The position numbers and the translations under genes are program-made. A stretch of DNA of 64,000 nt, taken from positions 28,210,001-28,274,000 of the forward strand of contig OZ320323.1 in NCBI GenBank assembly GCA_976226885.1, written 5' to 3'. The notes beneath the pieces were generated by a model that was not told the DNA's origin, ran no database searches, and saw nothing but the letters and a program-made list of their open reading frames with translations. This stretch comes from Iphione sp. A-MEVVRFRX5 (taxonomy: Eukaryota). Numbering within the stretch: the first letter of the stretch is position 1; each line of letters starts with the position of its first letter. Shown in pieces: positions 1 to 47,108 of the stretch.

Positions 1-187
1 ACAGGTGGGAATTTGGCAGGTATGCCTTGAGACCCATAAACAGGGCCATAAAAAGGGAGAAGTATTCCTCACCTGTCGGATCCCTCTCAGATTGAGTCAT
101 GGCAAGGTGTAAGTTCTCTTTGATCTAGTAACTGCTCTTGCGAAAGAGGGGAATTGCTCATTCCTGCCTGGATTGCTTCGAATTGCG

Positions 188-559
188 TCACGAAATGTTG
201 GAAACTTGCTGAGTATGCATTTGAAAAGGAACGTTAGTGTTCCCGAGATAAGGAAAGGCCGGATGGGTACACTGGGTATGCTGAGCCAGCCCGGAGGGTT
301 TGGGCATGGTCGATCTAGTTTTTGCGATGGAGTCGATCTTTAAGGGAGTCGTTGATCTAACACTTGGACAAAAGAAACATCTCAACCGTCTGCTCTGGGC
401 ACCCTGGTGTAGCTCCTTCACGTGTCTCTCCAGAGACAAACCTCTCCAGAAAGGCCTCCTCTTCTCACAGAACTCACACAAGGCTGCTCCCTCTGGGATG
501 GGAGCTCCCTCTTTGAGCACCCGGGGGAGGCAAGGCTTCCCAACCTTTTGCCTTGCCAT
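188..559 (-). CDS. Accessory ORF with two C2H2-like zinc-finger motifs, inside the gypsy element
   Basis: CEFC-x14-HVKELH and CFFC...HTQCTH; ATG at 559 preceded by acceptor-like TTGACAG; possible 5'UTR intron 562-859 (donor GTAAGC). Confidence 0.55.
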   Translation of the reverse strand: MARQKVGKPCLPRVLKEGAPIPEGAALCEFCEKRRPFWRGLSLERHVKELHQGAQSRRLRCFFCPSVRSTTPLKIDSIAKTRSTMPKPSGLAQHTQCTHPAFPYLGNTNVPFQMHTQQVSNIS

Positions 560-1399
560 GACTGTCAACAATTCGTCGGACCTTGCCAAGGGGGCCCCGC
601 ACCCTCACGGACTTGCCTCGTCAGGGAACCGCAACGGCGACCACTTTGGGGTACCCCGAGCAACAGAGGGATACGACGGCTCACCAGGCCGATAAACTCG
701 AGGGCCCGCGACGGCCGACGGCCCCGAGCGTTCACCAACAAAGTCAACGTTACCACCAGAAGCTAGGTGCTTCTTTGAGTCCGGGGGTCCACAACAGGTC
801 ATAAGTCGGGGTACCCCGACCAGCAGTTCAAATGCAATGGTGAAGAGAGGATGGCTTACCAGATCGATGAACTTGGGGTACCACGATGTCCGATTGTCGG
901 CGGTCAACACTCCTCTGGCTTTGCTTCTCCTGGACTACAATAAACACAACAGAGCTTCCTTGCTTGCAAGGCAGGTTCCTTCCTCTAACTCCTCTTCCCT
1001 GTTTAGTACAAATCCTGTGGCAGCATCCCCTTCTTTTTGGGAAAAACAAGTTTGTAAGAAGTCAGTAAACTTCTACCTCCATGTTACTCAGTTGGCCCTC
1101 CGCGCGATCTGAAAACGAGGCTGACCTCGATCTCAGTCCGGTCGGGGTTCCCCAACCCGATTTGACATCGCTTCCTAATTTCCAGGTTTCTTTCTGTTGG
1201 GGGCCCCCGACTAACATAATTTCTCTTTTCGGCTCGCTTGAAAATCAATTGACGCTGTTTCGTACATTCCGGAGGTATCCGCTTCACTCGATTCCGCCCT
1301 TGCTGCCTATTCGCGTGGTTGGGGGTCCCCAACCTCATTTTTTACACAGTTATCCGGGCGACCGGGGTTCCCCAACCCGCTGTCGATTCCCGCTTCGTC

Positions 1400-1435
1400 T
1401 ATATAAATGAGCGTGGCGGAGGCTCGGCGTCAGTG
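1400..1435 (+). promoter_or_regulatory. TATA box + initiator of the antisense gene
   Basis: TATATAAA with TCAGT about 30 nt downstream. Confidence 0.55.
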
Positions 1436-1675
1436 TGTCTACTGCCTTCGTCGTGATCACATCATGGATGTTCCTGCTTATCTGACTGGGGCCACCCAAA
1501 ATGGGTTGTACCTGCCTGAAGATGGTGACATTTGTTTTCCTCCTCCCAGGATGAGGTAGGTCTCTTCCCTTGAGGCAAGGGATCCTCACTGTTGCCAGTT
1601 CTGGAGACCATGTTGCCACCTGGCAGTTAAGTTGGCCCTCCTTGGAGGCCATGTTGACATCTGGCAGTTGAGTTG

Positions 1676-1733
1676 ATGGTGCTGCCTCTTCATGGCTCTA
1701 CCCCCGGATGCTTTGGCAGGTAAGTGGTCAACC

Positions 1734-1776
<43 letters not shown>

Positions 1777-2470
1777 CCCTTTCTCTCTTCTCATTTACAG
1801 GTCACCCCCTCCTGACAGCTATATGCGATACGTCGATATCGGAACCCCTGGGCCCACCATTCGCATCTTCGGACTACATCCGGTCATCAATCGGCCCCTC
1901 TACGTGTCTGCCCCAGGGGAGGTACGTCTAGTCGGGCCCTACCACTATGTGGACATTTCAATCCAGCCCATTTTGCCTCCCGTGGCGCCACCGACCGGCT
2001 TCTGGGCACCCCGCTTGGATGTGGTGTCCCCGGACCTGGGCCCCGAAGAACTCACCCCGTATCTTACCACCCTGGAGTCTGGGCCCCCCCATGAACAAGA
2101 CTACAGGGATCGTTGGTCGCCTGCCTCCCTGTCTACCTCGATCTTGGACCCTTGGCCATCCTCCTCTCCCTCCTGGTCACCCAGCACCAGCGCTACTTCT
2201 ACATCCAGCTCATCTTCATCGCCTCCCGCCTCCGACTATCCTTGCTCTCCTTCACCGATGGAATGGGGTACGCCAGTAGACACCCCTTCTCGCCCCACCC
2301 CACCGAACTCGCCCGAAGCAGGTCCCTTGCTCAGCCATGCTCATCTTCCTGCCTGGACGCCAGAGATCCTGGAATCCTGTTATCCCGGTCTACGGCCGGG
2401 GGACTGTCCCTGGTATCCCGTGGTTATCTCGGACACTGATGAGGGCGAGTCATTCAGGGGATACATCTAA
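1676..2470 (+). CDS. Antisense spliced accessory gene, join(1676..1719,1801..2470), ~237 aa Pro/Ser-rich protein of unknown function
   Basis: Intron GTAAGT (1720)...poly-T tract...TTTACAG (1800); splicing removes an in-frame TAA and joins ATG 1676 to the 215-aa ORF; TATATAAA at 1400-1407, Inr-like TCAGT ~1430, AATAAA ~2539. Confidence 0.6.
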
Positions 2471-2954
2471 TTGGACTGGGGGGGTGGGGATGTCGTATTA
2501 CCTTGCTGCTGTTTTTGTTATTGCATGGCTTCAGTAATAAATAATATAATAATTACATTCCTGGTTGGCACCCTTTTCTGCTTCTCACGATTGTTGCAAT
2601 CATCCTGCCATTCTGGCCAAGTAACTTCTGCCGTAGATTATACTTGTACATTCTAGTAGTTTACTGTAATGCGGTGACTACATCTTTTAAATGAATGTCC
2701 CATATCACCTCCATTAACAGGTTTTGCCACCCTCTTCCAGAGGACATAAGAGCAGCTTGGCATCTTACCCACTTCAAGAGGACAGTAGAGCAACTGGGCC
2801 CGCTTGTTCCTTTCCATGGCCGTGATGATGTCCCGCCCTTCGTCCAGAGGACATCTCCTCAACTTGGTCACCTTCTTCAAGAGGACGTAAATGCAGCTTG
2901 GTATTGTACCACTTCTAGCAGCACAATCCTGGTTACTTCTGCCTTCTAGTCCCC

Positions 2955-3915
2955 TTAACACCCCGCTCCAGGGGTAATCTTCTGTTTCGAGCAGTCCCAG
3001 GGCGTTTTATTTACCCTCACGGATCTTCTTGCGCATTCTTCAGGGTACTCATCCCCCTTGTGGGTGTCTGGGTTCCTCCCCAGCTTTTCTCGGTGGGATC
3101 CCCTTCTCCGGGACCCACCGCTTCCCCCACCATGGACCTTTTTGCCTCCCCCCCTCTGGCGATGGGGGGGGGGGCCCGGATGTCCGCCCTCCTCTCATGA
3201 GTTTTCTGAATGCCGCCAGGATGTCCGTCCTCCTCGTAGGCTCTTCCGCACTTTCCCCATGCCAGGGTGCCTACATCCCCTCAAAACTCTTCCGACTGCT
3301 CCAGGACACCATCCTTCTTCAGTATTCCCAGGGCCCTAGGGCCCCGTGGTCTTAGCCTTTTCTTGTTGTCTTCGCCACGCTACCACCCACCGGGGTACAG
3401 CCTCCCCCTTGTACTCGCGTACCCGATTTCGGTGTACGACCTTCGGTTTGGCTTGTCTGGCTCGCTGAATTACCACTCGCTCATCATCCAGCTTCTTCAC
3501 CACTAGCCATGGCCCTGTCCAGGGGAAGAATATTTTTGGACTTCTCCCTTTTGGGGGCTGGGCGTCGTGTAACCAGACCAACTCTCCGTCCGCAACAGGG
3601 TGTGCTCTTGCCCTTCGATCATAAGCCCTGGCCTGTAGCTTGGCTGCCCGTTGCAGGTGTAGCCGGGCCTCCCGATAGGCTGCTTGGAGGCGCTGCGCAA
3701 TCTCAGCTACCTTCTCAGATAACGGCTTCTCCTCTTCAGAGGGCTGAGGCACCCCGTCAATAGCGTGAACTGGTAGAATCACCTCCCGCCCAAACATAAG
3801 CATGTTGGGCGTATAACCCGTACCAGCCTGAGGGGAGGCGCGGTAAGCCATCATCAGGTAGGGTAAGGCTTCATCCCATTCGTCTTCCACCTCGTGACAG
3901 TGGGCCTTGATCATC
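2955..3915 (-). pseudogene. pol: Integrase C-terminal part and degenerate tail
   Basis: DEWDEALPYLMMAYRASPQAGTGYTPNMLMFGRE, ...KIFFPWTGPW...VVHRNRVR (GPY/F module); RRSVRVNKTPW tail near 2995-3030. Confidence 0.85.
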
Positions 3916-4738
3916 CTTGGATGCCGCAAAGATTCCCTCATGCTTCTTCAACACCTCTTCTAGTGCCCCCAGTTCTGGTTCGGACAGCTGGCTTGCAGCC
4001 GCAGTCAAGAGGGTTCTCCAAGCCTTGTCTGGTTCTAAGCAAACGCTGCGTACCTTGGGCCCGGATGCCTGAGGGGGCTCCTGTTCACTCACAGGCTGGC
4101 CCATGGCTAATGGGGTCCCTTGTTTCAGCACCACTGCTCTCTCCCCTAGGTTCCATAATGGTAGGGTCGTTCTAACTATACATCGTATCCCGAGGATACC
4201 CTTCCCCAGATTTTCCTCAGCCCCCCTTCGACAAGGAATGAGTTCCCCTAGCCACCCCCTCGCCAGCTGGTAGGGTTAAGTCATGAGCAAGACACAAGGG
4301 GGTCTCCTGTCCCCACTCTGCCGGGTCGATCCCCCTGTGGTTAAAATTTATCTCTCCTCTAGCTAAGTCTACCACTGCTTTGTGGTGGTTCAAGAAGTCA
4401 CTCCCTAGTATCCCATCCCCCTGGATCCTTGCTACCAGGAATGGATGTTGAAAATGGCCCCCCGCAATCTCTAAATCCAATACTTCTTCCCCTAAGGTGG
4501 GAATGACATGTCCTCCCGCTCCCGAGATCCGGGTTCCCCCCTTTTCCTCATCTAGGCCAGGGGCCACATCAGGGTTGATAATGGAAACTTCAGCTCCTGT
4601 GTCCACCAAAAACATGTGAGTATTGCCTCGAAGGCTTACCTGCAAGTGTGGCCCCTGGCCTTGTTCCACTATCCGCCCTGTAGGGGTCTTGTCAGCCGGG
4701 CCTCCCTGGCCTACTGGGCCGGCTGTGTTCTGTTTCCC
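3905..4738 (-). pseudogene. pol: pol N-terminus: retropepsin-type aspartic protease and pre-RT linker (frameshifted)
   Basis: FLVDTGAEVSII...GILGSDFL (ORF 4217-4759); LEEVLKKHEGIFAASKDDQG linker (ORF 3871-4134). Confidence 0.88.
4680..4738 (-). promoter_or_regulatory. -1 ribosomal frameshift signal (G GGA AAC + downstream stem/pseudoknot)
   Basis: Heptamer at 4732-4738; 6 nt later CAGCCGG pairs with CCGGCTG; loop GTAGG can pair with downstream CCTAC; the -1 frame is the protease ORF. Confidence 0.75.
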
Positions 4739-5554
4739 GAAGTGGGTAACTCTGGACAATTTCTCTTAAAATGCCCCTGCTTCCCACACTGATAGCATCC
4801 TGTAAACCGGGGCTTACGGGGCTTGGTTTCCTCCATGGCAGCATTTTCCTCGCGGAATTTCTTCAGCTCCTGAGCTATCACTTCCTCCATCTCCTTCTTC
4901 CAGGCTGGAACAGATGGGGTCTGTTGCACAGTATTGACGGTCTTGGCGCGGAACCGCTCCTGGGTCTCCATAACCTGGATGGCGTTATCCAGCGTCGTGC
5001 ATTTCGCTTCCAGGCATTTCAGATGGAGAGTATCTGCCAGTGCCCGTTGAAAAGCAGCTACTGCTGCCAGCTCCCGGGTTTCCCCGGTGACGTCCGGGTA
5101 GGCTGTTCTAACTAGCCGCCTCACTCTATCGGCTAGGTCTCGTACGTCTTCTTCTTTCCCTCGCCTCACCCCCCAAAAGTTTCTGCATGGCGATTACCCA
5201 GTCCCGCCGGCGGCCAAACCGCCGCTCCAAGGCGGCCACCCTGGAGGCGTAGTCCTTCTTTTCTTTGACTGGTAGATCGCCATAGTACATACGGGCCGCC
5301 CCCGTAAGAGACAAGGTTAGGGCTAAACATTTCGTACCTTCTCCCCAGTGACAGGCATCAGCCCATTCTGTGAACTGCCCAATCCAGCTATCCCAATCAA
5401 CAGTCTTTCCATCAAAGCGTTCCGGTTTCAAGGTGTTTACCTTCAAGGGCTCTTCAGGGGCCATCACAAAAGGCTCCTCCCCCTCCTCGTCCGGAGTTGG
5501 ACTGGGTACACGAATCTGCACTTCATCATCAACATCTACATACCTTGTAGCCAT
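4711..5554 (-). pseudogene. gag: gag (capsid-like region + CCHC zinc knuckle), one frameshift near 5170
   Basis: ORF 5126-5554 (KPERFDGKTVDWDSWIGQF...LSLTGAAR) and ORF 4711-5169 (CYQCGKQGHFKRNC) join if the G6 run near 5169-5174 loses one base. Confidence 0.88.
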
Positions 5555-5566
5555 CTTGCTTGGGGA

Positions 5567-5584
5567 ATCCCACTTCTGACACCA
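5567..5584 (-). promoter_or_regulatory. Primer-binding site complementary to the 3' end of tRNA-Leu (CAA type)
   Basis: Minus strand TGGTGTCAGAAGTGGGAT right after the LTR end ...TTACA-C; the plus strand reads GAATCCCACTTCTGACACCA, the 3' end of eukaryotic tRNA-Leu. Confidence 0.9.
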
Positions 5585-5585
5585 G

Positions 5586-6117
5586 TGTAATTTGCGTGTT
5601 TAATCCTCCACTTGGGTGTATCCAACTATTGTTACTACAGTCCAGGCTTAGTATGATCCACTGAAGTTAACCCATGTATCCTCCCAAGAGGTAGTCCCAA
5701 GTGGTTATGTGCTGCTAAGGTTCCCCGGAAGAACAAGTGCCACAAAGGTAATCCAAGTGCAAACTGGTTTATTGGTCACACAGGACCCATATTTATACCT
5801 CTCAAACAAGTCATGTGATCACAGAAAATAGCAACCATGTACTCTTCTTTGGAATAAAATGTATACAATGTCTCTTGTGTTGTCATTCTACACCAATCAG
5901 CTGTTGGCACCCTGGATGGTACCTAGAGATCCAGGGGCTAAGGTCACCTCTAATCTTAACTGGTTCGGGGTACCCCAACGATCCTTATATCTGGGGGTCA
6001 CTCGGTGCATCTAAATTCCCCTTGTGTCTGGGGTACCCCAGCCCAAACCTTCCTAGGGGTGAACAAGTACATTCAGACAAGCAGCTCAACCCTAGCTGAC
6101 TCGGGGTACCCCGTACA
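5586..6117 (-). repeat. 5' LTR (~532 bp)
   Basis: TGTA at 5586 and TACA at 6114-6117; 1 nt from the PBS; minus-strand TATAAA (5792-5797) then AATAAA (5768-5773). The outer boundary is inferred because the second LTR is not visible. Confidence 0.75.
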
Positions 6118-9100
6118 TGAAAGTTCTCCCTCTCTACAGTACGTATATAGTCAGTGTTTCCTTTGGACTGTACACAACTACTATGTCTGATGATAAAAAA
6201 GTAAGGAATGCTTTACACAGAAAAACGTAGACAATAAGAAACAGCTTGTGTAATCTTATAAATTGGTTTCTATGTGTAACACTGACAGGCATAATTATGC
6301 GTTTTACTCCAGGTCTTGGATGAAACACCACCTAAAAGTAACGGCAATGTCTGCATGTATGTCATGCGGTGAGGGTCAGTGGACATTGATATTATACACA
6401 CAGGAATGTCCTTGATCTATATTCACTGCAGTTTAGGGTTAATATAATCGTTGGCATGTAATACAGGACTGGCCTGTACCCTGAAGACTTGGATTACCTT
6501 GGACGTGTTGTCTTTTCTTCTCCTGGAGAAAATTCACCTTCCTGTGGTCACCTCAGTGCTATCAAATACCAGGTTGCATAATCATGTAGCCAATAAATAT
6601 TGATATCCTACTATGCAAAGCAATCTCCCTGAAACAGAAAAAAAGTAAACACGAGTTGTCCCCCATAAAGGACTGGCTCTAAGGGAGGGGGGGGCGGGGG
6701 GTTCCCTTCTTCTCAAATCGCTGTCTGTACCTATTGTCTTCAGTTATCTCCCTCAATCCATATTTGGGGCCAATTTGTTGATTTGGGCCATAAAACGCCA
6801 AGTTGATTGTTTGCGCCTTTCAATATTTGGTACCATTTGTTTATTTTCCCTTTTACGTACATGTCTTCTTTATGCAGAATACATTCCGGGTCATTTTGTG
6901 ACTTTGGGTCACTGGATGCTATGTGGAAAGTTTGCATCTTTCAAACCGCTTGAACCCTTTTAGCCATTTACCAAACCCTTCCTTTTTATCTAAAACACAT
7001 TTTGGATCATTCTATAGCTTTGGAGAAACATCTCTTTGAATCGGTTTGCAACTCTGGGTAACAGCAAAAAAAAACAATTTCAGAGAAAGGGGACAGTATA
7101 CCCTTAAACATGGCCGATTTTGTCCATTTTGTGCCCTTCTCTTTCATCTCGGATTCATCTATTCTCGACAATAAAATTTTTTTGTGGAGACAAAAAAACA
7201 TTTTACACCAGGTGTACATTTCGGGCCTTTTTGTCTATTCCTACCCTTCATCCATTTTCGCCTCTCATTCTTAGTTCTATTATGAATCGAATCATACGGT
7301 AACTTTCAACCATTTCCTGCTGATGTCCTACATTAGTATTTAAAGACATACTAGATTCACGTGAAACCTTTGAAAGCAGACATGTGACCTCTCACAAACG
7401 ACATGTCTGGCCGCCGTGGTCAGGGGTCAACAGCCTAGAAATTGTATTTCCTGGCTCACCACTACGGACATAGCTATAGGTCAGAAGCAATATAAAAATG
7501 CACGTTATTCAAGTGAAAGAAGTACTTTGTTTAATAAACCTGGTGGCTGGTGAATATCCTACAAGTACAGCACACACACATTTGTTTGGGACATGAGGGG
7601 GAAATCAACAAGAAGTAAGGAACATGGCGAGTACTCTTTCCTGCTCAGCTCCTTTTCTTCAACCTTCTATGTTTTGCCTTAGAAAAGAATGGAGCTCAAA
7701 GCTGCCAGTTGAAGCTACACGCGTATATGGCATGAATTGAATATACATGAGTGTATATTTATTCGATTAACTACCCCTGAAGTAGCTTACCTCTCCTGTC
7801 TGGATCAATTACGTAGGCTTTCTCGATCCATGCGGATACCATCATATATACCCACAGCAGTTCACAGCAGCCACTGTATGGCTATCGTCAAAACACAAGA
7901 CGCCCACTTAAAGATTATGAAAGCGTTAGTCCTCAAGTTCCCTTCCTCCGTGGCAAATTCCTTTCTTCCATATTCTGCAGCTTAATACTGGCCAATGTCT
8001 ACTTTGTGAACATATTTAAAATTATTCTGAGTCTTTATACCCCATAGACAATTTTGCATCACAGTTGTGCCGGGAAATGTACAGCTAAAATAGTCAATCC
8101 ATTTGAGTACAATCAGTTTACGATCAGCAGTCTAGTTACATTCTGACAAAGTCTAGCTGAAGACATGGAAAACAGTAATGTAACATTCCTGCGAGAAAGA
8201 GAAAAGAGAGAGGATGTGAAAGGGAGGGAGAGAGAGAAGGTGAGAGGGGGAAAAGGAGCTGAGGGGCAAAGACTGGTAGACACAGAGAGACAGGATGAAA
8301 GGGAGCGGGAGGGGGGGGACATCCTGTCACCAGTTATAGAGAGGGAACTTGAAGTATCCATATCCATACTGGCACTCCAAAAATAGTACATAATGAAACA
8401 ACTCCTGCTGGATCTGTCAAGACAAACATGCTATGCAGAAAAAGGCCTCCTCGCGACTGAGGTCAACACCATCTCAAATCTTTTGTCGAGGGAATAAAGA
8501 AAGTTGAATCTTATTTATTAATATGATCGTTACCTGCGAGTAGACATGAACATTAGTTCATCTTGTCGCCATTTCTTCTACTGTGCTATCTGAAGAATCT
8601 GAACATCCACGCTACAGGCTACCATAACTATTCAAAAATGGTGCCATTCGTAATCAGCTACAGTTATAAAAGAGTCACATTTCAGTAAGCTGGGCATAAT
8701 CCACATCTTTATTCGATTACAAGATATAATTCCTAATAAGGGTTCCTGGCCTTGTTTTAGCTGTGACCCAAACTATAGTATTCACTGTTTACTTTTTTTG
8801 AGTGACACTAGAGCTGGACCAATCACAGTGTATCCCGCCCAAGATGGGGGAACTTGCACCATAGAAAAACAAAGCTGTCTAGCACTGCAATAAATTGGGA
8901 GGTTAAATATCTCTTTTAATATTGCAGATAGACTTATTTGCTTTAAATAGCATAAAGAATATAAATTAACCCTGCTTCTAACCAACATTTGTATTTTTCC
9001 ACCACATCGACTCTGAAAGTTGACAGGGGGAGGAGTTATCACCTCAAAAGTGACAAGTGAATTCTAGCTGGCTTTGTGACCCATACTTCAACTATGACCA

Positions 9101-10914: not shown

Positions 10915-12270
10915 TTTTTTTTTATTTTTCTTTATTTCACCTGATATTTATATACAATAAGTACGATTTCTCAGGTCTCTTTCATATCATGTTTACGAGT
11001 GTAGTGTATTTACAGGAGGTGTTGTTATTTGCATATATACATATCTATACATACTTTGATACATTATGTACAGTAGTATGGTTATTATGATATGAGTACG
11101 ATAATGGGTGAATGCTGACGCGGGTAGATGTTACCTTCATTCTTATTGTCAACTTTCCCTCCTAGACATTGCCCAAGGAGTACGCTATAGCCGTAAATTT
11201 TGAATCTCACTGTTGCAATTAACATCACGTTTCATTACATTCGACTGTTGTTACGATGGGTCCTTGACAGATATTAAAGCCTTCCAGACATAGCCCAGGA
11301 AGATTACCGACTGTCCCATAGACTGATATGCCCAATGGGAGTTGATGGCACCATTTACAGTTGTTCTTGTTGTTTTAAGAGTAGTTTGACTCGTTTATTA
11401 AATTCCTTTTTGGGACAGCTCGTTATCGACACCGGTAGACTATTCCACATCTTTCCTCCAGCATATCCTATACTCTTCTTGAATGCTTCGTAGTTAGGTT
11501 TCTCGATTACAAATCTTGGCTTTGCATCATTCCGTGTTTTCATGTTGTTAGACTTGGTGGTCTGTCCTAGGGAGTGACGGCTGTACATTATTGAGAGAAC
11601 CCGGAAATTCCTTCTTGTAGAGAGATTGCTGATGTTAGCGTCCTTTTTCGCCTGGGACGATCGTATCGGGTGATTGTAGATGGTTCGTATTACTTTATTG
11701 TACATCTGTGCCAGGCGCTGGAAGTTTTGAGAATTTTCTCTGGTGAACAGTATTACACCATATTCCAATTGTGGCAATATTGTCGTTTTCACTATCAGTA
11801 TTCGATCCTTGAGGGTTAGCAGATTTTTCAATTTTCTAAACAGGAACAGCTTCCTACTGACTCGCGATAGAACTGAGTCAGTATGCTTTTCATAGGACAT
11901 GTTGTTGTCAATCAAGACCCCTAGATACTTGTATACGGGGACATGTTCTAAGGTGTAATTATCGTAGAGTATGTTAGGTGGGTCTCTTACTGGGTACCTA
12001 TATCGATACCACATGGCCTTTGTCTTTTCTCTGTTAATACAGATTCTATTGTCGGTTGTCCATTTATGGATTGCACTAACGTCAGTTTGGATGCGTTCTG
12101 TGGCCTGGGTTCTTGTGTCGCCGATTGCAGTGATCACCATGTCATCTGCATAAAGTATAGTTTTGCTAAATTTGCAGACTTGTACTATTGGGTCGATGAA
12201 GATAGTGAATAGAAGTGGACCCAGTATGGATCCCTGTGGGACACCGCAGGTTATTTTTGTTTTGTCTGAT
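10915..12270 (-). mobile_element. 5'-truncated non-LTR retrotransposon (CR1/L2-group LINE)
   Basis: RT motifs CGVPQGSILGPLLFTIFI and LYADD, then YKYLGVLID; frame open to the stop at 11355; 3'UTR ends in AATAAA and an A-rich tail at ~10915-10937. Confidence 0.9.
11355..12268 (-). pseudogene. LINE ORF2 C-terminal fragment (RT thumb and C-terminus)
   Basis: The 261-aa ORF 11355-12140 extends upstream in frame through YADD and GVPQGS. Confidence 0.88.
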
Positions 12271-13067
12271 ATTAATCATATATATGTAACATAGGAAGTT
12301 AGTTTTAAAAGATGTGCTCCAGTAGAATTAATTACAGCAGTACGTCAGTGCCCTCACCAAAATATGTATGGAAAACACAATCATCGTTGACTTCTAGAAA
12401 TAGAGTGAAGTTTAACTTATTTATCCTTCCATGGTGATCCTCCTCGTTCAGTTTTTTCCTCCGAAAGGAACGGTTAGTTCTGGGCCTCGAGTGCCCTTAG
12501 ATATGAACGGATTCAGGTCTTGGTCTGCCTAGGATGCTAAGGGATTCCGTGTTTGATTAAGCTGCTAGGCTGAGAGTAGGGTGGGACACAAGTGTCTCGG
12601 GTCAAAGCTAGGAATACAGCCATTGCGCCGGAGGGCTGGGATTATTTCATCTTTAGACCACTCCTTTATCGAATCCCTCGTGTAATAGTCCGTCTACTAT
12701 AGAGTTTTATGGTTGGGAGAAATTTTCTCAGTAACACATGGTAACTTGTATAGTCGTGTATGTTCCAACATAAATATCTATGAGAAAGAGGTGTTATATC
12801 AAAATGGAAACCACAAACTCATATTGACAGATATTGTGGTATACAATTAATATTTTTATTCTTCACACATAATTCACTGCTTCCAAACAAGGATCAAGTT
12901 GAATTCACATGAAAATATTTTCGTAATTGACCGCACAGCAGTATCTTCGCTCTCTTCTTTTTCCTCTATATCTTCCATACATCCTTTCATGTTGCTCACC
13001 AGTCCTCCTGTTATCTCTTTATCCCGACCTACCCAGTTCTTTATCCCTTTCGACTGCTCTCCTGCTC

Positions 13068-44248: not shown

Positions 44249-47108
44249 TCATTTGCCTATCCTAGCCTTGAGTTGTTGGAACGCATCAGTGTGCCACAGA
44301 TTGAAGCAATTTCTTTCTCCACTAAGACAGATGGGTACGTTGCATTGCTCTTCTGAGCAATACCATTTGGTCTTGTTCTCCTTCCCATGCAGAACATAGC
44401 ATACTTTGCAGTTGCGGCGTGTTGAAGAATGCATTGGCCTGTGAACACCATCGAATCCAAAGTGGCTTCTAATACGTGGTCTCAAGGCAGTATGGGGGTT
44501 TTCTTCCAAGTCACTGATTCCAGCCAGCTGACGACAGAGTTCTTCACGAAAATTCAGGTGTGAGAATCCGCTTGGTCGTTGTAGAGCAGTTACCTCGGGG
44601 TGCAGCTTCTGCCACTCTTTGAACAGCAAGAAGCTGTTCAGCACCGACATATCCAGCAAATGATAGAATAGTGTCTTCCACCATTTTTTTGATTTGTGCA
44701 GCATGGAGTATGTCCCCAGGAGTTGGTCAGAGATGTCCACCCCGCCCATGTGTGAGTTGTAGTCATGGATAGCCAATGGTCGCCTGATCATCATTTCCCT
44801 GTGACTTCCATCAGGTAGTTTCAGGTGACGCCTGACGAAAACATAATCACATCCTCTGTGCATGCTGCTGCAGGCACACACGGGCCTATTGTCCAGCCAT
44901 TGTTGACAGAGGATCCTGTCTGTTCTAATGAACCGTGTGTCTCCTCTTTGGGCTGCCTTTGCCCATGCCTTGTCTCTGAGGGCCTGCAATATTTAAGTGA
45001 TAGTATTTACAAATAATTCAAAACTATGAAGGATGAAGATTACAGTAAAACCCGATGTGCTTGCCTTCTTTCATCATGCTTTATTGTAGATCGTTTCGGG
45101 ACACTCGACCCCCTTCATCAGGAGTCTTCATACTTTATAATTAATTTAATTTTTTTTTTAATCTCAATGTAAAACTCACCGCAGGAAAGCCACGCCGTGT
45201 GACCACACTCGTTCCACAAGCAGCAGATCCCCTGGACATCAGACATTTGATGAGTGGCAGAGATGTAAAGAAATTATCAAAATATATCTTGTACCCTTGG
45301 TCAAGATGCTGATCCATGAGGTTAGTAACAACATCGTACCCAAGGCCATGTTGTGATGGGCGCTGACATCTACCAGTGTATACACTGTAAAAACAGTCAA
45401 TATCAGATATTCATTACATGCGCTGAAACTGTCTTGGCGCAAACATTTGGAATTCCATTCTGGATACAGTTGAACCAAATATATGCATGTTAATACCAAG
45501 TGCACCAAAATTGTTAAACACACTACTTCCATCACAAAGACAACACTTATGCACACCTGAAGTTGATGGTGTAACCTGTTGTCGACTGGCATAAGCACCA
45601 CAGCTTAAAACCAAACCGTATTGGTTTATTGGGTATAAATTGCTTCAGACTGCATCGTGCCTTTGAGCGCACCATACGTTCGTCCACAGCTACATGTTCC
45701 TTGGGTTGATATAAACTTGAACACATCCTCCTGACATGATCCAACACTGGTCTGACTTTTGCTAGGTGGTCAGTTGGGTCCTCTGCAGATGGGTTACTTG
45801 CATGCAGCATGCTAGAGATGGCCTTGAATCTAAAAGAGAGAGGATTACACTTCAAATACCTTATGCCTTAGTACATATGCCAATTTAGAATTCCAATGTT
45901 CATCATGTTGATGCTGAGTACAGAAACATGCAGGTTCTTAGTCTCAGGTACTTAGGTATTTAGTCGCCCTATCAAAATGATTCTGTTTTGGCACTAAAAC
46001 CTACACACCCATGGTTCTCTAATATTTTCCATTTCACCCAATTTTTCGTTGTGAGTATGTGGGCCAACAAGAAGCACGGGGCTCACCGATTTCTGGAGAG
46101 AAAGCGTGATGCCCATCCACCGGAGTACAATGTTGACTGATTCCAATAACGTGACACATCATGAAGTTCAATGAAACCCATCAAGATACACAGCGCTATG
46201 AATGATCTCATCTCTTGAAATGTCACTTCGTCCCAGGTACCTTGTGGGGTAGCATACGATGGCTTGTTATGGATCGTCAGCCAGCCATACAAATTAGTGT
46301 TATCACACAGCATCTGCAGAAGCAAATATGGAAGGATGTTCATCCCACATAGGATTCAATGAGGGCTACGATAAGGGGATGTTACAAATCATAAATACAT
46401 CAATGAAATGAACATATATATGATACAGTTACACATGCACATACTTGCATCAATTCATGAGTGAAGAATAGCTGGAAAAAATCCACAGCTCTGGTGAGTC
46501 CTTCCATGCGCCATCTCGTAATCCTATCTGATACATGGGGGCCTGGAGCCCGCATGGGAGTGAATGCAGGTATACTTGGATGTGAGTCGTCATCCTCATA
46601 TGTTTTCGGCCTGTAAAAAAAAAGTATATTAACAAATGTTTCAACACTGCCAATAATGACTATCCATAGCGCAATGGATAGCGCACTTGCTTTTGGTGCG
46701 CACGACCCGGGTTCGATTCCCAGACGATTTTTCTGTCAACAGATGAAAACCTTTTTTTTTCATTAAAAAAAGCACAACTATATAATAATTATATTTAAAA
46801 ACATAGTTTTACATTTAATCTTGCAGTTTCACCTTAATTACGAGATAATTTGGCAAAAACGTTTGTTAATCATAGAAGATTCACTTTTACCTTGATGTTA
46901 TTGGACGAGCAGCTCCAACAGCCGGGACTTCTTCCATCTCTTCTTCATCAACTTCCATCATTAAATCATTCATCTCAATTTCCTCTAATTCTTCCTCTTC
47001 ACCTGATGACATCCCTGACATCTCGTCACTTTCCAAAGCTTTTTTCCCTTTTCCTGAATTCCATAACTCCCGAGCTCTTAGAGCAGCAGATCTCACAGTA
47101 CGTGACAT
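44249..47108 (-). CDS. piggyBac (PGBD4-like) transposase, six exons: 47108-46891, 46610-46445, 46313-46087, 45829-45557, 45384-45180, 44983-44249; 607 aa
   Basis: All five introns are GT-AG with matching phases (2,0,2,2,0); 1824 nt open; acidic N-terminus, DFFQLFFT, VAVDERM, NKPIRFGFKLW, FDNFFTS, YNSHMGGVDISDQ, KKWWK, C-terminal CKVC...C...C...C...CFNLWH domain. Confidence 0.93.
45078..45125 (-). ncRNA. Hammerhead-ribozyme-like core of Penelope-like-element type in transposase intron 5
   Basis: Minus strand CTGATGA-A-GGGGG-TCGAGTG-TCCC-GAAAC-GATC followed by AATAAA; helix I partner not evident. Confidence 0.45.
46660..46732 (+). ncRNA. tRNA-derived Pol III-type unit (not a canonical tRNA) in transposase intron 1
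   Basis: A box TAGCGCAATGG, B box GGTTCGATTCC, then TTTTT; the acceptor stem does not pair. Confidence 0.5.

Follow-up and report, generated by a model that had tools for sequence, protein, structure and literature searches.

The open reading frame at 188-559 on the minus strand of the window (the whole 64-kb stretch of DNA that was analysed) is best read as a decayed member of a widespread class of zinc-finger genes that gypsy elements carry after pol as an ORF3 that is not env. It is almost certainly the remnant of a real finger gene, and it probably belongs to the gypsy element that lies beside it. The first-pass annotation of this DNA had proposed an element-encoded, nucleic-acid-binding regulator, and the part of that proposal that stands is a non-env protein with a nucleic-acid-binding type of finger, probably encoded by the element and separately spliced. 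Beyond the earlier description, the element is decayed, ORF3 is probably truncated, an antisense gene separates it from pol, and a zinc-finger ORF3 is lineage-wide rather than a one-off.

The zinc-finger ORF3

The reading frame and its two Cys/His regions are located as follows.

188-559, minus strand: zinc-finger ORF3, 123 aa, ATG at 559 and stop at 190-188, probably truncated
407-478, minus strand: finger 1, C-x2-C-x14-H-x4-H with an F-x5-L-x2-H core
263-379, minus strand: finger 2, non-canonical, with a CxxC, a 29-residue spacer and H-x4-H

The ATG at 559 and the 123 codons reported previously were found again, as was the C-x2-C-x14-H-x4-H motif, whose ligands are C28, C31, H46 and H51. Both the pattern and the hairpin-helix fold of this region are those of a C2H2 finger. 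Arg occupies helix positions -1 and 6, which we take to be the usual guanine readers of the recognition code. The protein is basic (19 K+R vs. 7 D+E) and has no hydrophobic stretch, its highest 19-residue Kyte-Doolittle mean being 0.55, so, in agreement with the earlier description, it is not env. An env identity was rejected: the 123-aa product lacks a signal peptide, a TM anchor and an extensive ectodomain, and it matched none of the env families in Pfam.

The second C-x2-C...H-x4-H motif had been listed beside the first. Its residues are present, but an intact canonical finger is ruled out. The spacer between C64 and H94 is 29 residues long, and in an alignment with 11 relatives the His pair of the relatives falls on residues 78 and 83, neither of which is His in the window protein. 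No His pair lies on a helix 12-15 residues after the CxxC, the predicted helix at 72-83 being without His. A short word is present in three imperfect copies in the DNA of the spacer, as a local duplication or an indel could produce.

Structure prediction, recommended earlier as a check on the frame, returned finger 1 as a hairpin and helix and left H94 and H99 in a low-confidence region, with pLDDT below 50 in both AlphaFold models. The alignment-guided model contained two hairpin-helix units with helices at 40-50 and 72-83 (pLDDT 64.8, the model being biased by the input alignment), and residues 88-107 were unconfident. Prediction from the single sequence gave a poor model (pLDDT 43) with the first helix only. 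Foldseek returned nothing at E 0.001 with the ORF3 model; its top rows were weak matches to DNA-binding C2H2 fingers, the first being a two-finger peptide (E 0.33).

Searching 1.84 billion representative proteins with phmmer gave two matches (E 3.3e-5 and 3.1e-4), both generic multi-finger proteins aligned to finger 1 only. The Pfam C2H2 match was sub-threshold (E 0.26), and the Atlas gave generic C2H2 clusters only, with recognition below its threshold. A specific homologue was not found by phmmer, by a word-based protein search at near lengths or in the Atlas, and a sequence search of the PDB gave chance matches only.

The gypsy element beside ORF3

Minus-strand features upstream of ORF3 in the sense of transcription belong to a Ty3/gypsy element.

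5586-6117, minus strand: 5' LTR of 532 bp, TGTA...TACA, with a TATA-like box at 5797 and AATAAA at 5773
5567-5584, minus strand: primer-binding site (PBS), TGGTGTCAGAAGTGGGAT
4711-5554, minus strand: gag with a CCHC knuckle (zf-CCHC, E 3.6e-5) and one frameshift near 5200
4217-4615, minus strand: aspartyl protease (Asp_protease_2, E 1.2e-7), its frame stopping at a break
3336-3914, minus strand: C-terminal part of integrase; reverse transcriptase (RT), RNase H and the integrase N-terminus are missing

The LTR edges were placed from the TG...CA ends and the adjacent PBS. The PBS, presumably that of tRNA-Leu, has the same first 14 nt as the PBS of the relative L042. TGAAA adjoins the LTR at 6118-6122, the word expected of a TGAA or TGAAA target-site duplication. 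The TG...CA LTR, PBS, CCHC-bearing gag, protease and integrase at the end of pol are those of a Ty3/gypsy element; RT and RNase H are deleted from this copy, and both are present in relatives. In relatives integrase is the last domain of pol, which speaks against a Gmr1 order. Because about 790 codons of pol are missing when compared with the relative P0009, the window element is a dead, decayed, non-autonomous gypsy copy.

Neither a second LTR nor a further copy of any other part of the element was found within the 64-kb window, which ends 187 nt past the ORF3 stop. The A33G9 tract read on the minus strand at 1772-1731 was rejected as a polypurine tract preceding a 3' LTR, the DNA that follows it being unlike the LTR. 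A search with the PBS pattern recovered one unrelated env-type element; L001 is an env-carrying gypsy-type element among viral contigs with a similar PBS.

Palindromes, putative promoter and antisense gene between integrase and ORF3

ORF3 follows pol in the sense orientation, as described before. The statement that it lies where env would be holds insofar as it comes after pol, where infectious relatives have env, and is loose in that the distance from integrase is 2.8 kb and includes an entire antisense gene. The intervening DNA and the LTR contain the following features.

2730-2901, no strand: four imperfect 31-nt repeats after pol
1400-2541, plus strand: antisense gene, with TATATAA at 1400, donor GTAAGT at 1720, acceptor at 1800 and AATAAA at 2536
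560-1420, no strand: putative internal promoter and 5' leader, probably bidirectional
648-1373, no strand: six GGGGNNCCCC palindromes, starting at 648, 808, 1144, 1199, 1321 and 1364
860-934, minus strand: putative 75-nt exon between the acceptor at 935 and the donor at 859
562-859, minus strand: putative intron, donor GTAAGC (859), acceptor TTGACAG (last base 562) 2 nt upstream of the ATG
5967-6112, no strand: three GGGGTACCCC palindromes in the LTR, starting at 5967, 6030 and 6103, upstream of the LTR TATA box

The palindrome that had been noted as common to the LTR and the ORF3 region occurs far above chance. GGGGNNCCCC was counted three times in the LTR and six times at 648-1373 and was absent from gag-pol and from the other 58 kb of the window; its frequency in 1-1500 and in the LTR was reached in 0 and 1 of 1000 shuffles, respectively. 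The palindromes sit upstream of both TATA boxes, that of the LTR and that at 1400. With the 3' LTR beyond the window, it is this sharing between the LTR and 648-1373 from which we infer that ORF3 belongs to the element. The palindromes argue for membership of ORF3, not for their binding by the finger protein. Eight of the nine, and likewise 5562-5571 directly behind the PBS, fit what we take to be an NF-kB-type consensus, and a host factor may therefore bind the palindromes.

The predicted promoter region stands out by a CpG observed/expected ratio of 0.93 at 560-1420, against 0.20-0.70 in nine other segments that were measured. An origin of this promoter by duplication of the LTR was rejected, since the alignment scores were reached in 14 and 2 of 100 shuffles; the only similarity of the LTR to 1-3335 is the palindrome.

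Signals for the 5' UTR intron proposed at 859-562 are present, but its acceptor is weak, with 8 of 16 pyrimidines compared with 12 of 16 for a stronger acceptor at 935. The 75 nt from 935 to 859 are open in the reading frame of the finger ORF, and with the stronger acceptor this suggests that the finger gene may have further exons. On the opposite strand, the antisense ORF (1823-2470) has 215 codons and encodes a Pro/Ser-rich, acidic product with a motif near its end that we take to be SIM-like. Its gene has an 81-nt intron containing a C9T33 tract (A33G9 on the minus strand, 1731-1772). No homologue of the antisense ORF was found in Pfam, in a word-based protein search, among the loci of relatives or in the Atlas. 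The DNA directly after integrase, 2656-3335, contains broken frames and matched neither Pfam nor those loci.

Zinc-finger ORF3s in related elements

Relatives were collected by aligning integrase homologues and scanning metagenome contigs with the alignment. The best 80 of 111 confirmed stretches were kept and formed 56 families at 85% identity, 36 of which extend at least 1 kb past integrase; no integrase relative was confirmed among viral contigs. C2H2-type motifs, counted over 4 kb past integrase with H or C allowed as the last ligand, occurred two or more times on the sense strand in 11 of the 36 families and on the antisense strand in none (best 80 of 111 stretches). One or more motifs occurred in 17/36 families in the sense and 3/36 in the antisense orientation, and the 17 still include L028, whose ORF is a chance one. 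Omitting the short chance ORFs of L028 and L073 from the 21 motif-bearing families left 19 for the analyses that follow.

In these relatives the fingers lie near the start of ORF3 and are followed by a long low-complexity tail. The distance from first finger to stop is 154-615 residues in 12 of the 14 closed ORF3s, and the two shorter ones (L045 and L050) look frameshifted. The ORF3 of L050 lies between LTRs that are 96% identical, and those of L033 and L065 precede an LTR end and PBS. ORF3 is separate in 17/19 relatives, mostly behind its own acceptor, and the best acceptor leads to an in-frame ATG within 22 nt in 13/19 ORF3s, compared with 209/1600 pol controls. A spliced ORF3 message would accordingly be the norm in relatives, an arrangement that supports the separate spliced transcript proposed for the window gene. 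The finger region and pol form one open frame in L056 (2621-5230) and L074 (297-5957), and L071 (1045-1518) and L075 (2076-2591) have another kind of short ORF3, in which one CxC...H...C motif is present.

Comparison of L050 and L060 gave a dN/dS of 0.34 over 299 codons of ORF3 and 0.18 for integrase, and purifying selection on the coding sequence of ORF3 is thereby shown for this one pair; dN/dS was not computable for the ORF3s of L061, L044 and L071/L075. Eight families (L022, L025, L026, L037, L042, L045, L053, and L055) form a clade with 100/100 support in the integrase tree. The finger regions of this clade, compared without L037, are mutually similar down to E 7e-21, and by these comparisons ORF3 is inherited with pol in the clade.

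Two kinds of additional domain were detected. The ORF3s of L054, L063, L065, and L077, which are 650-1085 aa long and have a Cys/His region, end in a TatD DNase domain (E 1e-30 to 1e-39); L069 is probably likewise, and the integrase tree groups the TatD-type families in a single supported clade. The ORF3 of L060 starts with a histone-H3-like tail (L060:2093-2167; L050:6234 onward), whose only PDB matches were three H3 tails (E 0.26-0.78) and which points to chromatin for the L050/L060 family. The ORF3 starts of L056 and L027 resemble that of L060 by eye, and L056 had no PDB match at E 10. Neither type was recovered for the window copy. Histone H3 mimicry was rejected, its N-terminus having no H3-tail or other match in the PDB at E 10, and a TatD-type ORF3 was rejected for lack of similarity in 1-3336, though only 187 nt follow the stop.

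The window ORF3 has the layout of the class: it lies on the sense strand after pol, its fingers begin within about 30 residues of the start, and it has no TM segment. Its acceptor, although weak, lies just before the ATG (2 nt), as in the class. A profile of the finger regions of the 19 relatives ranked the window ORF3 first of 2177 targets at 11.5 bits, the next, a chance match, scoring 11.0; the best single relative was L023 (9.8 bits). L023 and L035, with a canonical finger 1 and a long-spacer finger 2, have the closest pattern. From first finger to stop, however, the window ORF3 has 96 aa, well short of the tails of the relatives, and its own tail was probably lost to a premature stop. We thus regard it as probably truncated, with damage to finger 2.

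The match to the class is architectural, as judged from these sequences, and orthology is not claimed. The window element was unplaced in a tree built from the integrase piece, tblastx of 1-3336 against the loci of relatives gave nothing at E 0.05, and neither a repeated palindrome nor a similar antisense gene was present in the 17 relatives inspected. The gap from integrase to ORF3 is 2.8 kb in the window and 0.16-1.6 kb in relatives. The nearest elements by integrase identity (L006, 45%; L043, 44%; L076, 42%) have no finger ORF in the 1.6-6.3 kb downstream.

Possible role of ORF3 and alternatives

The combination of finger and disordered tail, the Arg residues at -1 and 6, a G-rich motif common to the LTR and the putative internal promoter and, in one family, the H3-like tail suggest a nuclear regulator that could bind the promoter DNA or chromatin of its own element and keep the element transcribed, an explanation that we favour tentatively. 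ORF3 would be the third gene of a gypsy element, encoding an N-terminal C2H2 pair and a low-complexity tail from its own spliced mRNA. A CpG-rich internal promoter at about 1100-1400 would fire both ways, into the antisense gene and the finger gene. The protein might then enter the nucleus, where its fingers might bind G-rich promoter DNA or chromatin of the element, and by recruiting or blocking chromatin machinery of the host the tail might keep transcription of the element going; this whole sequence of steps, entry into the nucleus included, is the more conjectural part. In the dead element of the window, ORF3 has a damaged finger 2, and its tail has probably been lost to the premature stop.

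A broader version of this explanation, which we regard as unlikely, is that a large animal gypsy lineage uses the place of env for a zinc-finger regulator of chromatin encoded by the elements themselves, with swappable effectors that defeat host silencing. The fingers would address the element's own promoters, and the effectors would be the H3-tail mimic, the TatD domain, a coiled coil or an acidic tail. The window ORF3 would stand head-to-head with an antisense SIM-bearing protein, both under the palindrome of the LTR, and the two genes would form a feedback circuit like those of complex retroviruses. If so, the main anti-transposon protein fold of the host would have been turned to the use of the transposon.

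The same gene in the same element could instead act on RNA, binding unspliced genomic RNA and serving nuclear export or limiting splicing as CERV or Rev do, which we consider improbable. A sense intron or acceptor in a retroelement requires genomic RNA to escape splicing, and C2H2 fingers in general can bind RNA. CERV is a spliced, Cys-rich, non-env product in the env position that is needed for export of genomic RNA (passages of PMC10309623). On the other hand, the structure matches of the window ORF3, all weak, are to DNA-binding fingers, one family carries the H3-like tail, and tandem C2H2 fingers with acidic, Ser/Pro-rich tails are generally more typical of transcription regulators.

Membership of ORF3 in the element bears on a further explanation, in which the finger ORF is foreign: recombination would have attached the 3' portion of a different element as 1-2700, or a piece of a host zinc-finger gene would have been captured. 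The lack of a 3' LTR in the window and the long gap after integrase would agree with this, as would the intron-containing gene that lies between with its own TATA box and poly(A) signal, the restriction of database matches to generic multi-finger proteins and the lack of an ORF3 in the nearest integrase relatives. The confinement of the palindrome to the LTR and 648-1373 speaks against a foreign origin, as do a GC content of 48-60% in nine-tenths of 1-3335 compared with 40% in the flank and an architecture like that of the ORF3s of relatives, and we hold such an origin to be improbable as well.

That ORF3 is a tether directing integration to chosen chromatin, like the chromodomains of chromoviruses, seems highly unlikely. 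The fusion of the finger region to pol in two relatives and the TatD nuclease domain in four would suit a tether, but ORF3 is a separate frame in the other 17/19 and lies far from integrase (2.8 kb) in the window.

That the ORF and its Cys/His motif both arose by chance in repeat DNA rich in GC is scarcely credible: although an equal length, not significant alone, was reached in 9.8% of 500 shuffles, one C2H2-like motif arose in 39/500 shuffles of 1-3336, four loose finger motifs occur in the other 58 kb and the Pfam and Atlas results were below threshold, the motif with a following CxxC (a pattern picked after the sequence was seen) arose in 0/500, phmmer reached E 3e-5 among 1.8 billion proteins, and strand, position and acceptor-ATG spacing are right for the class.

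Comparison with known systems

Rotifer gypsy-type elements are described in passages of PMC5408684 as having non-env ORF3s after pol that encode a DEDDy exonuclease, a GDSL esterase or a coiled coil. Those of bdelloid rotifers resemble the window class in belonging to animal gypsy-type elements, in being non-env genes after pol and in being described as separate spliced units; they differ in being enzymes or TM proteins, and the words "zinc" and "c2h2" are absent from that text. CERV of the C. elegans element Cer1 is likewise a non-env product in the env position made from a spliced mRNA; it is nuclear, has a possible zinc-binding Cys cluster and regulates its own element, but its Cys loop is of the C4 type and it shares exons with gag (passages of PMC10309623). 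Compared with CERV by description, the ORF3 class has an N-terminal C2H2 pair, apparently its own promoter and a lineage that extends over many hosts. The earlier generalization that additional ORFs in animal gypsy elements as a rule resemble env therefore has published exceptions in rotifers and Cer1 (passages of PMC5408684 and PMC10309623).

In the plant elements Retand and Grande the stretch from pol to the 3' LTR measures 2.9-6.6 kb and contains tandem repeats as well as antisense ORFs whose products are probable DNA-binding regulators (passages of PMC11963269), an arrangement like that of the window element, and a title cited in that paper refers to an accessory gene of Grande with its own promoter. 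They differ in belonging to a plant lineage, in encoding a TRP28 domain and in being antisense only (passages of PMC11963269), whereas the window element is from an animal and has a divergent antisense and sense pair with a C2H2 gene. The env ORF3 of errantiviruses also follows pol with an acceptor just before the ORF (passages of PMC13524379); the window encodes a basic 123-aa finger protein instead, with neither a signal peptide nor a TM segment nor a large ectodomain. In comparison with classical C2H2 fingers (Pfam PF00096 and kin; the two-finger peptide PDB 2drp), the core of finger 1, the fold and the two-finger layout are alike, but the 14-residue spacer, the scores below Pfam cut-offs and the non-canonical finger 2 are not.

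No description of a C2H2, TatD or H3-mimic ORF3 in animal gypsy elements was found in searches of open full-text articles; Repbase, Dfam, GyDB, subscription journals or supplements may contain one. No such ORF3 is described in passages of PMC8220671, PMC12440569, PMC13524379, PMC6238403, PMC6338049, and bioRxiv 10.1101/2022.11.29.518450, and a literature search on gypsy and TatD gave nothing relevant. Non-env accessory genes are thus already known, and the zinc-finger class is apparently undescribed.

Significance of the class and host surroundings

With regard to transposons, C2H2 fingers are known chiefly from the defences of the host. A gene for them in roughly one-third to one-half of the families sampled in one animal gypsy lineage would mean that these elements encode their own regulator or counter-silencing factor, and the recurrence of the gene in elements of many animals suggests a widespread self-encoded regulator of mobile elements. 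Few cases of self-encoded regulators in animal gypsy elements have been worked out, CERV being one. The ORF3 of L027 (5712-6323) is identical to RefSeq scallop proteins labelled "uncharacterized" at several loci, and some multi-copy "uncharacterized" zinc-finger genes of invertebrates are thus retrotransposon genes. The window locus is a dead and damaged copy, and its value lies in the class to which it points.

Elsewhere in the window, all on the minus strand, are a host exon of a rhodopsin-family GPCR (32347-32826), a piece of a piggyBac-like transposase (44249-44992) and a piece of a non-LTR RT (11355-12275).
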